Assembly (NCBI GenBank): GCA_050741255.1
Contig: JBOIEQ010000003.1
Coordinates: 2,213-66,212, forward strand
DNA length: 64,000 bases
Direction of reading: 5' to 3'
DNA from: Burkholderiales bacterium
GTDB taxonomy: Bacteria; Pseudomonadota; Gammaproteobacteria; Burkholderiales; SG8-41
Shown one piece after another: positions 56,857-60,995 of this stretch. The translations under genes and the position numbers were made by a program. The notes beneath the pieces are model-generated. The model ran no database searches and had not been told where the DNA came from. It was given only the letters and a program-made list of their open reading frames with translations. The first letter of the stretch is position 1. Each line of letters opens with the position of its first letter.

Positions 56857-57558
56857 TCAGCCGCGCAGCCACGCCTCCAGCGCCTGCGTCACGGCCTCCG
56901 GTTGTTCGATCGCGCTCAGGTGGCCGCAGTCGGGGATGGTCACGAGCCGCGCGCCGGCGATGCCGGCCGCGATCTCGGCCGCGCGCTCCGGCGGCGTGGG
57001 CACGTCCTGGTCGCCCACCAGCACCAGCGTCGGGCAACGGATGGCCGGCAGTCCGGGCAATGAATCCGGACGCTGCATGATCGCCGTCAGTTGCCGCACG
57101 AAGGCTTCCGCACCGGCGTCTTCGGCCATGGCGTGGACGATGCCGCGGAGCGCCGCGTCCTCGCGGCGGCCCGGGTGCACGAAATTCGGATAGAGCAGGT
57201 CCGGTATTTCACCGAAGTGCCCGGCCTGCGCCTGCGCGATCTGCTCCTTGCGTTTCGCGGTCTGCTCCGCGGTGTCCGCGCGCGCCGATGTGTCGAGCAG
57301 TGCCAGCCGCGCCACGCGGTCCGGCGCCTGGCGCAGGATCTCGAACGCGATGTAACCGCCCATCGAATGGCCGGCGAGCGCGAAGCGCGGCGGGGCGTCG
57401 GCGAGGATGCGCTTGGCGATGCCCGTCATGCTGTCGTCGCGTGTGTGATCGGCGACCGTCACCGGGCCGGAGCGCCACAGCGCGGGAATCTGCGCGGCGT
57501 AAAAACGCGGCGAGCAGAGCAGGCCGGGAATGAGGACGACGGGCAGGGCAGCATGCAT
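56857..57558 (-). CDS. Alpha/beta-fold hydrolase
   Basis: Internal ATG. MHAALPVVLIPGLLCS; nucleophile elbow LAGHSMGGYIAF; C-terminal CGHLSAIEQP. Confidence 0.8.
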   Translation of the reverse strand: MHAALPVVLIPGLLCSPRFYAAQIPALWRSGPVTVADHTRDDSMTGIAKRILADAPPRFALAGHSMGGYIAFEILRQAPDRVARLALLDTSARADTAEQTAKRKEQIAQAQAGHFGEIPDLLYPNFVHPGRREDAALRGIVHAMAEDAGAEAFVRQLTAIMQRPDSLPGLPAIRCPTLVLVGDQDVPTPPERAAEIAAGIAGARLVTIPDCGHLSAIEQPEAVTQALEAWLRG

Positions 57559-57634
57559 GAGCGTTTCCGGTAACGGATGGAGGCAGGAGGGTGTCACACG
57601 CCCTGGCGCAGGGTCTGTAGGCGAGCGTCTGACG

Positions 57635-58759
57635 TCAGCTGACGTCGTGCGGTCTGGCTCTTCGATGCACCTCCGGGTTCAGCGCCGCGATCCGTTTGGC
57701 GAGCGAGGGGTGCGTGGCGAGACAGCGCCAGCCCACGGCCGGCACGAAGAGCAGCGGCCCGACTTCCTCGCGATACGGCCCGCTTAAACGCTGCGTTCCG
57801 GTCTGCTGCAGTCGCCGCAGCAGCGCGTCCACCGCAGCCGGATTCCGCGTGAGCTGCAGGGTCGTCGCGTCCGCGAGCAGCACGCGTTGGCGGGCGCCGA
57901 GCGCGCGTATCCATCGCGCGAGCGCGTATCCGCAGCTCCCGATGAGCGAGATCACGCCGCCGAAAAAGGCGACGATCATGCCGAAGAAGCATCCGGCCTT
58001 GCCGAGGTCGCCGACGTTGCCGTCGCTGTCGCCCGAATGACGCAGCACCGCGCCCGGCGCGCCCACCAGGGACCGGCCGGCCGCGTAGACGGCGGTGAGG
58101 CCGGCGAGCCAGCCGATCATGCGCACGTTGAGCGCGACGTCGCCGTTGGCCACGCGCCCCAGCGCGTACGCCACCAGCGCCTGCAGCTCCGCCCGCGGCA
58201 GCCGGAGGACTGCGCCCTGCGTGAGGATGACGGCGATGTCGTCCGGCCCGGCAGCGAACGACAGGGCGTTGACGGATTCCCGGTCCGCGTCGAGCACGTA
58301 GAGCGCGGGCGGCAGCAGTTGCGCAGCCAGCGCCATTTCATCGGCGACGTTGATGAGCTGCCGCTCCTCTTCGAACGGCCTGTCGCGGTCCACGGGCCGT
58401 GCGCCGAGGCTGCGCGCGAACGCCGCGGAGCCCTTCCGGAGTCCGCGCCGGCGCGCCTGCGCGCCGTTGGCCATCACGAGGAGCGACACTCCGCTGATGA
58501 CCGCGTAAAACCCCAGCGGCATGGCGGCGAGCACTCGCCACGGTTCGGTCTGTATCGTGCCCAGCGCCTCCGGCGGCAGGCGGTCCATCGCGATCCCGGC
58601 GAGGGCCAGCCCCATGAACACGTTGATCGTGGCGACGACCAGCGGCACGCACAGCAGGACCAGCGCGAAGCGCCACCGCGCCCGCCGCGCGGCGGACGCC
58701 TGCGCGGCAAAAAAATCGATGGTCCCGGCCGGCGTTTCGGCGGGAGGCGCAGCGCTCAC
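57635..58759 (-). CDS. M48-like membrane protein with substituted active site (predicted pseudo-peptidase)
   Basis: 374 aa with the family layout: N-terminal DFFAAQASAARRARWRF plus TM, and C-terminal THPSLAKRIAAL. Where HExxH is expected it reads ELQALVAYALGRVANGDVALNVRM. Where SRxxExxAD is expected it reads ARQRVLLAD. Confidence 0.7.
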   Translation of the reverse strand: MSAAPPAETPAGTIDFFAAQASAARRARWRFALVLLCVPLVVATINVFMGLALAGIAMDRLPPEALGTIQTEPWRVLAAMPLGFYAVISGVSLLVMANGAQARRRGLRKGSAAFARSLGARPVDRDRPFEEERQLINVADEMALAAQLLPPALYVLDADRESVNALSFAAGPDDIAVILTQGAVLRLPRAELQALVAYALGRVANGDVALNVRMIGWLAGLTAVYAAGRSLVGAPGAVLRHSGDSDGNVGDLGKAGCFFGMIVAFFGGVISLIGSCGYALARWIRALGARQRVLLADATTLQLTRNPAAVDALLRRLQQTGTQRLSGPYREEVGPLLFVPAVGWRCLATHPSLAKRIAALNPEVHRRARPHDVS

Positions 58760-59361
58760 GCGCTCAGGGATACGCGAACCGGCTGCCGCTCCTCCGGACG
58801 CTCGGTCTGGAACGACGAGGCTTCGCGGAACGAGAAGATCGCGGCGAGGAGGTTGCTCGGAAAGATCTGGATCGCGGTGTTGTAGCGGAGCACCGCGTCG
58901 TTATAGGCCTGCCGCGCGAACGCCACCTTGTTTTCGGTGGAGGTGAGTTCCTCCGACAGGCTGGCGATCGTCTTGTCGGCCTTGAGGTCCGGATACGACT
59001 CGACCAGCGCGAAGAGGCGCTGCAGCGCGCCGCTCAGGCCGGCATCCTCGGCGGCGAGCTGCCGGATGGCCTCGGCGCTGCGCGGATTCGCGGCCGCCTT
59101 CTCGCTTGCAGAAACCGCGGCTGCGCGGGCCCGGGTGACCGACTCCAGGGTCTCGCGTTCGTGCTTCAGGTAACCCCGCGCCGTCTCCACGAGATTCGGG
59201 ATGAGATCGAAGCGGCGCTTGAGCTGGACGTCGATCTGCGCGAAGGCGTTGACGAAGCGATTGCGCAGCCGGACGAGCGCGTTGTAACCGAGTATCGCCC
59301 AGGCCGCGAGGACCACGGCGATTGCGATCAGCAGTATCTGGATCGTGATGAACGTCAGCAT
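58756..59361 (-). CDS. lemA: LemA-family protein
   Basis: ATG (CAT 59359-59361) after GGGGAGG. N-terminal TM, then GYNALVRLRNRFVNAFAQIDVQLKRRFDLIPNLVETARGY...ESYPDLKA...ENKVAFARQAYNDAV. ATGA overlap with the M48-like gene. Confidence 0.9.
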   Translation of the reverse strand: MLTFITIQILLIAIAVVLAAWAILGYNALVRLRNRFVNAFAQIDVQLKRRFDLIPNLVETARGYLKHERETLESVTRARAAAVSASEKAAANPRSAEAIRQLAAEDAGLSGALQRLFALVESYPDLKADKTIASLSEELTSTENKVAFARQAYNDAVLRYNTAIQIFPSNLLAAIFSFREASSFQTERPEERQPVRVSLSA

Positions 59362-59387
59362 GAGCGGCCTCCCCGGGCGCGTGCAGG

Positions 59388-59600
59388 TTAGTTCGGTCGG
59401 GCGAGGATCTTGCTGTACAGGCGGTCGTATTCCTGTTTGGTGACGGCGCCTTCCTTCAGCGCGCGTTGCAAGTCGGTGAGTTCCTGGCCCTTGGAGATCG
59501 TCGTCGTGCCCTGCACGCGGACGTAGGTATCGCCGCCGCCGCAACCGGCGAGCGAGACAAGGGCAAAGGCGGCGAGGGCGATCCTGATCGTGGTTTTCAT
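59388..59600 (-). CDS. SHOCT-domain lipoprotein
   Basis: ATG (CAT 59598-59600) after GGGGAG. Lipobox in MKTTIRIALAAFALVSLAGC. C-terminal SHOCT-like ELTDLQRALKEGAVTKQEYDRLYSKIL. Confidence 0.7.
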   Translation of the reverse strand: MKTTIRIALAAFALVSLAGCGGGDTYVRVQGTTTISKGQELTDLQRALKEGAVTKQEYDRLYSKILARPN

Positions 59601-59620
59601 GTTGGGCTCCCCGTTCGCTT

Positions 59621-59839
59621 TCACTGGACGCTGTCGATGAGCGACTGCTTCTGGCGCTCGTAGTCGCGTTCGTTCAGCGCCCCGGAGTCGCGGGCTTTCT
59701 TGAGATCGATCAACTGTTGTCCGACCGACACGCTGACCGTGGGTTGCAGGACTTCGTTGCCACCGCAGCCGCCCACAAGCAAAGCAGTGGCCAGCGCAGC
59801 GGCAGTCAATGGTTGTCGCAGTCTCGTCATCATCGCCAT
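59621..59839 (-). CDS. SHOCT-domain lipoprotein (paralog)
   Basis: Lipobox LLVGGC. C-terminal QLIDLKKARDSGALNERDYERQKQSLI. Confidence 0.7.
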   Translation of the reverse strand: MAMMTRLRQPLTAAALATALLVGGCGGNEVLQPTVSVSVGQQLIDLKKARDSGALNERDYERQKQSLIDSVQ

Positions 59840-59906
59840 CTCCCTTTTTGGGATCGATTATAGGCCCACGCTGTCGAGCGCGGACGGTGTGGGTGCCGGA
59901 GGCATG

Positions 59907-60995
59907 TCACCCCCGCTCGTTCAGAAATACGCGCGCCTGCTTTTCCCCATCGGCCATCAGCATCCCGATGTTTTCCGGACTGCGGTCGATCTTGCTTTCG
60001 TAGTCGAGCTTGGCCTGCAGCTCCGCCGACATCTCGATGAACGGGATGTAATAGTCGCGATCCTCGGCGCCGGGATAGGCGCGTGGAATGCGGATCGGTT
60101 CCTTCACGTCGAACTGTTGCAGGAATTCGGGGCGCAGCGCGTTGTTGCGCAGCAGGTCGTTGATGAAGGCGAGCGAGTCGAGGCCCTGGAACAGGGAGAC
60201 GTTGCCGACCAGCTGGTTGCGGCGGTCGCCGATGGCTTCCGGCGCGCTCGGCACCCTGGCACACACGGTCGGATTGATCTTGATCACCCAGACTTCGTGC
60301 GGGATGTTCTGCCTGCCCACGTAAATCGGCCGGATGAGTTCCTTCACCGGCGGATTGTCGGAAAAAAGTCCGTCCCAGTAGGCGCCGCCGTCGAACTCCA
60401 CGGCGGGAAAGATGTTGGGCACGGCGCAGGAGGAGAGGATGTGCTCCACGCGGATCTCGCCCGTGCGGGAGCTGAATTTGACGAGTTGCCCGGTCAGGAT
60501 GTTGACGGCGCCGAGCAGGAGCGCCGGTCCGTCTTCGAGCGCCCCCCACCGCTTCAGCTCGCTGAAATCCATGTGTGCTTCGAGCAGGGCGCGCAGGTCG
60601 GTAAAGCGCGGACGAAACTTTGACGCCACGGCGCCGAACATCGACGTCAGCACGGGCGAGGACGGGCTGATGTTGAACTGGGGCATCTGGCCCCGGCTGA
60701 CGGTGCGCATGGATTCCACGACGAACTGGTTGAACGCCTGCTCGGCGGGAGATTGCGCGGTGTTCTCGTTCCAGAACTCGATGATGCGGCGCCAGGGTTC
60801 GGGATCCTTCTTCGCGAGGGAGTACCAGGCGAGCGCGGCGCAGATCGAGCCGCCCGAGGTTCCGGACAGGCTGACGATGTTGAAGTCCTTGTGCACCCCC
60901 TCCTCGAACAATCCCTTCAGGACGCCGGCGGTGAAAGCGGTCTGGCTGCCGCCGCCCTGGCAGGCGATGGCGATTTTCGTTTTGGGTGTCGGCAT
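59907..60995 (-). CDS. Patatin-like phospholipase
   Basis: Internal ATG (CAT 60993-60995). Oxyanion motif IACQGGGSQTAFTAG; nucleophile GTSGGS; Asp region FDGGAYWDGLFSDNPP. Confidence 0.85.
   Translation of the reverse strand: MPTPKTKIAIACQGGGSQTAFTAGVLKGLFEEGVHKDFNIVSLSGTSGGSICAALAWYSLAKKDPEPWRRIIEFWNENTAQSPAEQAFNQFVVESMRTVSRGQMPQFNISPSSPVLTSMFGAVASKFRPRFTDLRALLEAHMDFSELKRWGALEDGPALLLGAVNILTGQLVKFSSRTGEIRVEHILSSCAVPNIFPAVEFDGGAYWDGLFSDNPPVKELIRPIYVGRQNIPHEVWVIKINPTVCARVPSAPEAIGDRRNQLVGNVSLFQGLDSLAFINDLLRNNALRPEFLQQFDVKEPIRIPRAYPGAEDRDYYIPFIEMSAELQAKLDYESKIDRSPENIGMLMADGEKQARVFLNERG

Follow-up and report, generated by a model that had tools for sequence, protein, structure and literature searches.

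Do genes that are packed like an operon necessarily encode one molecular assembly? The question is raised by four closely spaced genes in a 64,000-nucleotide (nt) stretch of DNA (herein the window) from a Burkholderiales bacterium (GTDB lineage SG8-41; GenBank assembly GCA_050741255.1, contig JBOIEQ010000003.1, positions 2,213 through 66,212). Between positions 57635 and 59839 of the window, the sequence reads as four open reading frames (ORFs), all on the minus strand and in the order lipoA, lipoB, LemA, and M48L (Table 1). They encode two paralogous SHOCT-like lipoproteins, a LemA family protein, and a homolog of M48 metalloproteases that lacks the catalytic residues. An initial annotation had recognized all four gene identities correctly, and the ORF coordinates bear out the common strand and the 20- and 26-nt gaps that it described. 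It further proposed that the products form a periplasm-facing envelope complex in which proteolysis has been lost and the lipoproteins serve as ligand or anchor components. We consider a different arrangement probable, namely two independent conserved gene pairs, LemA-M48L and lipoA-lipoB, which local rearrangement has juxtaposed in this Burkholderiales lineage.

The Four Genes Are Not Conserved Together

Co-conservation, named in advance as the touchstone for a four-gene complex, is not what the closest relatives show. Locus L087 (M48L 86% and LemA 91% identical to the window proteins) has the gene order LemA-M48L-α/β hydrolase-patatin, and locus L088 (M48L 81% identical) has the order thiamine pyrophosphate (TPP) enzyme, a gene of 169 amino acids (aa), LemA, and M48L; neither contains the lipoprotein genes. 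LemA-M48L in a third locus, L002, is likewise free of them. Beyond M48L in L088, genes for an iron-containing alcohol dehydrogenase (Fe-ADH), DUF58, and MoxR lie on the other strand, and the flanks match those of the window on both sides. The LemA-M48L core keeps its place between the genes for the TPP enzyme and Fe-ADH, and other genes come and go around it. The patatin gene that precedes lipoA in the window has an ortholog (93% identity) between lipoB and LemA in locus L169 and after the α/β hydrolase gene in L087; the ortholog of the window's α/β hydrolase (88% identity) keeps its position in L087 and is absent from L088 and L002.

The lipoprotein pair was located in seven distinct contexts (the window; L169; L085/L086; L084; L083; L171-L175; and L176-L180). 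LemA lies near it in just two of these, the window and L169, and in the remaining five the pair stands with no LemA or M48 gene in the sampled flanks, which speaks against a four-gene unit. L169, with the order lipoA-lipoB-patatin-LemA, comes from a close relative (lipoB 94% identical). Wherever there is space for both genes, ∼20 nt separate the A-type gene from the B-type gene that follows it, and the order is always A and then B. The pair is movable and turns up in unrelated genomic surroundings.

M48L Is a Conserved Pseudoenzyme

M48L matches the Pfam M48 family (PF01435) with 28.1 bits (cut-off 20.3; active relatives score ∼100 bits) and the HtpX domain of Protein Data Bank (PDB) entry 3CQB in a profile comparison (E = 3e-8). 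The AlphaFold2 (AF2) model of M48L has an HtpX-like fold (predicted local distance difference test [pLDDT] 88.1; predicted template modeling score [pTM] 0.82); a Foldseek search of the PDB returned HtpX 3CQB (template modeling score 0.77) and Ste24/ZMPSTE24 as the best matches and BlaR1 as a weaker one.

The initial annotation regarded the M48-like protein as inactive, and alignment agrees. YALGR occupies the position of the HEXXH motif, which reads HEFSH in active relatives and HEVSH in HtpX 3CQB. The third zinc ligand, the Glu of RQRE in the helix after transmembrane helix (TM) 4, is replaced by Val in the RQRV of M48L; active relatives have R[QE]RE. M48L contains four His residues in total, and only H350, within the structural THP motif, is conserved. 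Judged from these alignments, M48L is a true M48 homolog that cannot operate by the canonical zinc-peptidase mechanism.

The same losses unite a clade of 27 homologs (herein the dead clade), which are ∼365 aa long, 42 to 85% identical, and share 58 invariant columns. HEXXH is found in none of the 27 and Val at the third-ligand position in all of them; the substitutions are H to Y/S/H/W, E to A/V/G/T, and H to R/L/Q/E within the motif, and E to V at the third ligand. Twelve columns are invariant across both the dead and the active groups (N137, E141, A145, R189, D207, R290, R292, D297, A298, T304, R305, and R356). Ratios of nonsynonymous to synonymous substitution (dN/dS) measured against L087 and L088 are 0.20 to 0.24 for M48L, 0.13 to 0.20 for LemA, and 0.10 for the neighboring Fe-ADH. 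Because dN/dS is this low and the AF2 model retains an HtpX-like fold at a pLDDT of 88, M48L is a conserved pseudoenzyme under purifying selection and no decaying pseudogene.

A profile search run exhaustively against 1.84 billion representatives placed only 5 dead-clade members among the 150 best, so that the clade is a rare offshoot of its family. The score drops from 305 to 256 bits after the clade, where thousands of ∼650-aa proteins follow (3,304 representatives at E ≤ 1e-30); HEXXH is kept in 144 of the 150 best representatives. The long active relatives carry a C-terminal extension of ∼280 residues with TerB-like matches, which M48L lacks. The LemA partner of the dead clade stays normally conserved, whereas M48L has diverged by 5 to 6 identity points more than active-active pairs have at equal LemA distance.

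Catalytic residues have also been lost elsewhere in the family. The full-length protein P0194 (645 aa) has HQFSH for HEFSH and keeps the TerB-like tail, an independent loss of the catalytic Glu alone. A second M48 group (P0050-P0061, ∼490 aa) is also devoid of HEXXH; in the one context examined (L170, 4001 through 5419), genes for OmpA-like, FHA, PP2C phosphatase, and Ser/Thr kinase proteins are present and LemA is not, and this group was set apart rather than counted as kin of the dead clade.

LemA and M48 as a Widespread Gene Pair

The LemA protein of the window matches PF04011 over profile positions 1 through 148 of 149 (179.1 bits, cut-off 26.2; E = 6e-53). It is 77 to 91% identical to the LemA proteins of L002, L087, and L088 and mostly 50 to 70% identical to those paired with active M48 proteins. 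We surveyed 160 loci from species-representative genomes and metagenomes, taken among the matches listed and supplemented by exact-protein look-ups; the locus counts that follow refer to this set. LemA lies directly upstream and on the same strand in 137 of the 148 HEXXH-M48 loci with room for it, which upholds the pairing that the initial annotation had described. The paired loci belong to Verrucomicrobiota, Planctomycetota, Lentisphaerae, Proteobacteria, Myxococcota, and other phyla. No recurrent third gene emerged around 141 LemA-M48 pairs among the matches listed: the largest neighbor cluster covers at most 13 of the 141, and many clusters consist of alternative-frame ORFs of GC-rich DNA. 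A hidden Markov model of the lipoprotein family likewise found no member in the ∼160 other LemA-M48 loci. On the evidence of sequence and gene order, LemA followed by M48 is an ancient, widespread, self-contained two-gene unit, and the LemA-M48L pair of the window is clearly derived from the widespread pair of LemA with a long M48 protein.

Matches listed in the scan are mainly distant active relatives, the new dead-clade loci being L089 through L091. Within the dead clade, LemA is adjacent to M48L in the window, L002, L087, L088, and L090. A sub-branch of M48L genes with no adjacent LemA (L001, 5001 through 6098; L089, 3959 through 5068; and the P0018 locus) is 54 to 59% identical to M48L of the window, which shows that the pseudoprotease can occur by itself.

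The searchable literature yielded nothing relevant on the LemA-M48 pair, on LemA with HtpX or TerB, or on HtpX-type pseudoproteases. A PADLOC scan of the four proteins returned no defense-system match (best hit, LemA to LmuB, E = 0.035), and a defense reading of the locus was dropped on this result.

lipoA and lipoB Form a Fixed Pair of SHOCT-Like Lipoproteins

lipoA and lipoB are paralogs (38% identity over 63 aa, E = 1e-12). The dN/dS values of the small lipoprotein genes, 0.18 to 0.28, indicate that these ORFs are real genes, and homologs of the small ORFs, which the initial annotation presupposed, do exist: the lipoB family comprises 146 homolog clusters, with an invariant C20 and a near-invariant mature part. 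That part starts CGGGDTYVRVQGTTTISKGQELTDLQRAL in lipoB itself, and the mature consensus of the family is CGG(G)DTYV.VQGTTTISKGQELTDLQRAL.EGAI. All 38 aligned family members have the lipobox Cys.

SHOCT-like C termini had been ascribed to both proteins. Taken singly, neither reaches the gathering cut-off of 27 bits for SHOCT (PF09851), lipoA scoring 21.6 and lipoB 14.9 bits; taken as a family the assignment stands, with 29 of 38 members matching at E ≤ 0.01 and the best of them reaching 5e-6. For lipoB, AF2 models a two-helix hairpin (residues 37 through 49 and 55 through 67) with pLDDT above 90 (92 for the block). Because a signal peptide with lipobox Cys, family-level SHOCT matches, and the two-helix hairpin coincide, “SHOCT-like lipoproteins” is a fair label. 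All 38 members also give subthreshold matches to Pfam GvpG, in its C-terminal part, and the name “gas vesicle protein GvpG” is carried by one NCBI record of the lipoB family (P0153); on a 70-aa lipoprotein, this name is probably a misannotation that stems from the SHOCT-like hairpin. Weak signal-peptide matches of the small proteins to LptM and YgdI/YgdR in NCBIfam were not used for naming.

Upstream of lipoA, TATAAT forms a perfect −10-like hexamer in DNA of ∼68% GC. The same TTATAATCGA is found upstream of lipoA in L169 (TATAAT at 196 through 201). Since the hexamer is conserved there despite a different upstream gene, lipoA-lipoB probably carries its own candidate promoter, which travels with the pair.

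Predicted Membrane Topology Separates the Two Pairs

The hydropathy of LemA peaks over residues 1 through 19 (score 2.7); no residues precede its TM helix, and Lys and Arg residues lie solely C-terminal of it. M48L has RRARWR before TM1 and five Lys or Arg residues within the 15 residues after TM2; its AF2 helix pattern and charge distribution agree with an HtpX-type topology, with TM3 below the hydropathy threshold. The soluble catalytic domain of HtpX resides in the cytoplasm. Based on the Lys/Arg distribution (positive-inside rule), the AF2 helix pattern, and this HtpX topology, the LemA domain and the M48L domain are both most likely cytoplasmic, a placement with which the proposed periplasm-facing complex conflicts. 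Only two ∼20-residue loops of M48L would reach the periplasm, the compartment of the lipoproteins. Neither lipoprotein has Asp at position +2; under the E. coli +2 sorting rule, a lipoprotein without Asp at this position goes to the outer membrane.

A Model of Two Pairs and Its Alternatives

We propose that the parent is an inner-membrane module of a single-pass LemA encoded directly upstream of a ∼640-aa HtpX-like M48 zinc protease with a C-terminal TerB-like domain. In the clade of the window, an old single loss would have removed the three zinc ligands, the catalytic Glu, and the TerB-like tail of the protease. M48L was then most likely retained as a noncatalytic membrane partner of LemA, whether as scaffold, regulator, or substrate-binding subunit, as loss of catalysis followed by purifying selection suggests. 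LemA and M48L would form a cytoplasm-facing pair in the inner membrane; lipoA and lipoB, each with ∼50 mature residues that end in the SHOCT-like hairpin, would constitute a separate periplasmic pair and probably act as a heterodimer or via a common partner. The two pairs would have no physical link. Transcription of lipoA-lipoB probably runs through into LemA-M48L, because merely 26 nt separate the pairs after the rearrangement.

Several observations weigh against this model. The 20- and 26-nt gaps, with no terminator found between the genes, make cotranscription likely in this genome, and a shared transcript often goes with a functional link. In L169, lipoA-lipoB likewise lies near LemA, separated from it by patatin; the neighborhood has thus outlasted one rearrangement or more, a possible sign of selection to keep the genes linked. 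The TM3 helix of M48L did not reach the hydropathy threshold. LemA is missing beside the dead M48L of L001, L089, and the P0018 locus, and M48L therefore does not strictly need an adjacent LemA. Finally, the comparison comprises ∼8 dead-clade loci and seven lipoprotein contexts, several of them from related metagenomes.

Among the alternatives, we regard as unlikely a lineage-specific membrane-lipid module in which LemA with M48L scaffolds the cytoplasmic patatin and α/β hydrolase at the inner membrane face and the lipoproteins are tied to the patatin. It would explain why, in the window, L087, and L169, orthologs of both hydrolases have stayed beside LemA-M48L although the genes were reordered; these three loci are, however, from close relatives, so that shared ancestry explains the linkage, and LemA-M48L occurs with neither hydrolase in L088 and L002. 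A nonorthologous patatin (25% identity) two genes downstream of lipoA-lipoB in L176-L180 would fit as well, yet patatin is absent from four of the seven lipoprotein contexts. The modeled bridging of PimA and EphE by a LemA-like domain (10.64898/2026.07.15.738315) offers a precedent for such scaffolding, against which stands the lack of any recurrent neighbor in the 141 LemA-M48 loci among the matches listed.

A single envelope complex of all four proteins, with LemA and dead M48L in the inner membrane and the lipoproteins as periplasmic ligands or anchors, is about equally unlikely. The common strand, the 20- and 26-nt gaps, the 4-nt overlap of LemA with M48L, the lack of a detected terminator between lipoB and LemA, and the recurrence of lipoA-lipoB near LemA in a second close relative, L169, all favor it, and the two short loops that M48L would expose to the periplasm offer, in principle, a site of contact. 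These points are outweighed by the lipoprotein-free loci L087 and L088, whose M48L proteins are 86 and 81% identical to that of the window, by the five of seven lipoprotein contexts with no LemA or M48 in the sampled flanks, and by the predicted cytoplasmic location of the bulk of LemA and M48L; the lack of Asp at +2 would moreover send both lipoproteins to the outer membrane.

Very doubtful is the broader idea that the dead, truncated M48L reveals the core job of LemA-M48 to be a nonproteolytic, LemA-centered scaffold, which here organizes patatin and α/β hydrolase for membrane-lipid turnover and to which the SHOCT-like pair would be a periplasmic accessory tied to patatin genes. That M48L is still a protease with an unconventional active site can scarcely be credited: strong purifying selection, an intact M48 fold, and the 12 columns shared by dead and active groups would suit it, but all four catalytic positions hold residues that are neither metal-binding nor basic catalysts, and the only conserved His, H350, belongs to the structural THP motif.

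Comparison with Known Systems

M48L shares its fold and helix pattern with HtpX, the M48 subfamily B protease of the E. coli inner membrane: a pair of TM helices at the N terminus is followed by a cytoplasmic domain, another membrane hairpin, and a C-terminal helix. It also keeps the THP motif and the NGD motif that follows the metal helix. It differs in having YALGR for HEXXH, Val for the third-ligand Glu, and a gene next to LemA; its NCBIfam HtpX match is far below the cut-off and was not used for naming. With the pairs of LemA and a long M48 protein, the window has gene order and strand in common, and the M48 regions are 31 to 33% identical over residues ∼14 through 362, whereas M48L has 374 aa as opposed to ∼640 and lacks the TerB-like domain and the catalytic residues. 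The long pairs are annotated just as “LemA family protein” and “M48 family metalloprotease” and are uncharacterized; the dead, truncated M48L is a new variant of this known but uncharacterized pair. Membrane pseudoproteases such as the rhomboid-like iRhoms and Derlins and the plastid FtsHi proteins have kept their fold after loss of catalytic residues. M48L resembles them as a conserved dead protease fold, which implies binding or scaffolding, although the folds and organisms are unrelated.

LemA is among the more widespread bacterial membrane protein families without an assigned function, and among the loci listed one large subfamily is almost always encoded immediately before an HtpX-like protease that bears a TerB-like tail. 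The clade of the window can be viewed as a natural separation-of-function variant, in which the partner is conserved without catalysis or tail; the retention of M48L argues that binding or scaffolding with LemA belongs to the function of the pair. Candidate residues for such a noncatalytic role are N137, E141, R189, D207, R290, R292, D297, R305, and R356. The practical value is modest: the analysis sets right the notion of a periplasmic complex of four proteins and flags a lipoprotein family that is named “GvpG” in at least one public record.

As a helical bundle on a membrane anchor, LemA resembles MamQ, its match to the NCBIfam MamQ model (94.6 bits) being far below the cut-off of 250. MamQ, the only LemA family member tied to a cellular process (PMC4902198), and the LemA-like domain of mycobacterial ML0451c have been proposed to be membrane-associated scaffolds or remodelers (PMC4902198; 10.64898/2026.07.15.738315); in the model of the latter, a 2026 preprint, the LemA-like domain bridges PimA and the α/β hydrolase EphE at the cytoplasmic membrane face (10.64898/2026.07.15.738315). 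The analogy is functional only, as the window locus has neither magnetosome genes nor a NUDIX fusion and the LemA partner is an M48 homolog.

The C-terminal amphipathic two-helix hairpin of the lipoproteins, ∼28 residues with the pattern L..L...G.(I/L)(T/S)..E(Y/F), resembles SHOCT (PF09851). The differences are that all single-protein scores lie below the gathering cut-off, that the hairpin would be periplasmic after its lipoprotein signal, and that it occurs in a stand-alone, fixed A-B pair; SHOCT-like domains are predicted to be mostly intracellular (PMC11237479). The description of SHOCT as an oligomerization domain in the initial annotation finds no support in the defining paper's own test of that role (PMC3581485).

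Locus Layout and Flanking Genes

Table 1. Features of the LemA-M48L/lipoA-lipoB locus and its immediate flanks (window coordinates)
Feature	Positions	Strand	Description
lipoA, A-type SHOCT-like lipoprotein	59621..59839	−	72 aa counted from first ATG; lipobox LVGG-C
lipoB, B-type SHOCT-like lipoprotein	59388..59600	−	70 aa; lipobox SLAG-C
LemA family protein	58756..59361	−	201 aa; one N-terminal TM helix; PF04011
M48L, HtpX-like M48 homolog	57635..58759	−	374 aa; GTG start; PF01435
YALGR (M48L residues 198-202)	58154..58168	−	At the place of HEXXH, by alignment
RQRV (M48L residues 290-293)	57881..57892	−	At the place of RQRE, by alignment
TATAAT, −10-like hexamer	59857..59862	−	In the 67-nt spacer between patatin stop and lipoA; sequence read
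Patatin-like phospholipase	59907..60995	−	Flanking neighbor; 362 aa; without signal peptide; PF01734
α/β hydrolase	56857..57558	−	Flanking neighbor downstream of M48L; Abhydrolase_6 and Abhydrolase_1 matches

The first ATG is probably not the start of lipoA; 59833 or 59830 is more likely, because GGGAG lies at 59844 through 59840 and homologs have 70 aa. The gaps run from the lipoA stop to the lipoB ATG (20 nt) and from the lipoB stop to the LemA ATG (26 nt). LemA and M48L overlap by 4 nt at 58756 through 58759, where the M48L GTG at 58759 falls on the LemA TGA (gcGTGAgc); the junction is GTGA and not ATGA as first read. The GTG start is backed by homologs, which have V first and then a conserved N terminus. 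The GTG start of M48L recurs in L087 and L088, there without overlap and a few nt past the LemA stop. A database protein 100% identical to M48L is annotated “M48 family metalloprotease”.

Cotranscription of the four genes in this genome is plausible because of the short gaps. A promoter consensus scan of the region found no full −35/−10 promoter. The corresponding terminator scan gave three terminator-like sites against 2.5 expected by chance, which is uninformative; none of them lies between lipoB and LemA.

The α/β hydrolase has ∼233 aa when counted from the ATG at 57558, and its ORF reaches back to a GTG at 57597. Patatin genes lie within two genes of lipoA-lipoB in three of the seven contexts (the window; L169, 750 through 1838; and L176, 4294 through 6568). 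In L176-L180, the gene belongs to a split PlpD-like pair of patatin and POTRA/Omp85 and lies two genes downstream of lipoA-lipoB; at 25% identity, the L176 patatin was rejected as an ortholog of the window patatin, and the patatin link is weak. Just beyond Fe-ADH, a set of DUF4350, MoxR-type AAA+, and DUF58 genes (window 51632 through 55388, plus strand; L088 7405 through 10942; 66 to 93% identity) shows synteny with L088 and is unrelated to the LemA-M48L locus.

The M48L stop codon lies within a perfect palindrome of 16 nt, GACGTCAGCTGACGTC (57631 through 57646, minus strand), which contains TGACGTCA-like half sites; it is no hairpin of the terminator type. The real genes are overlapped, on both strands of 57635 through 59544 and its neighbors, by numerous long ORFs in alternative frames or antisense, an example being a 332-aa ORF at 57887 through 58885 on the plus strand. 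Such ORFs are typical of GC-rich DNA and are not genes; conservation of the DNA beneath them even produces BLAST matches from locus to locus.

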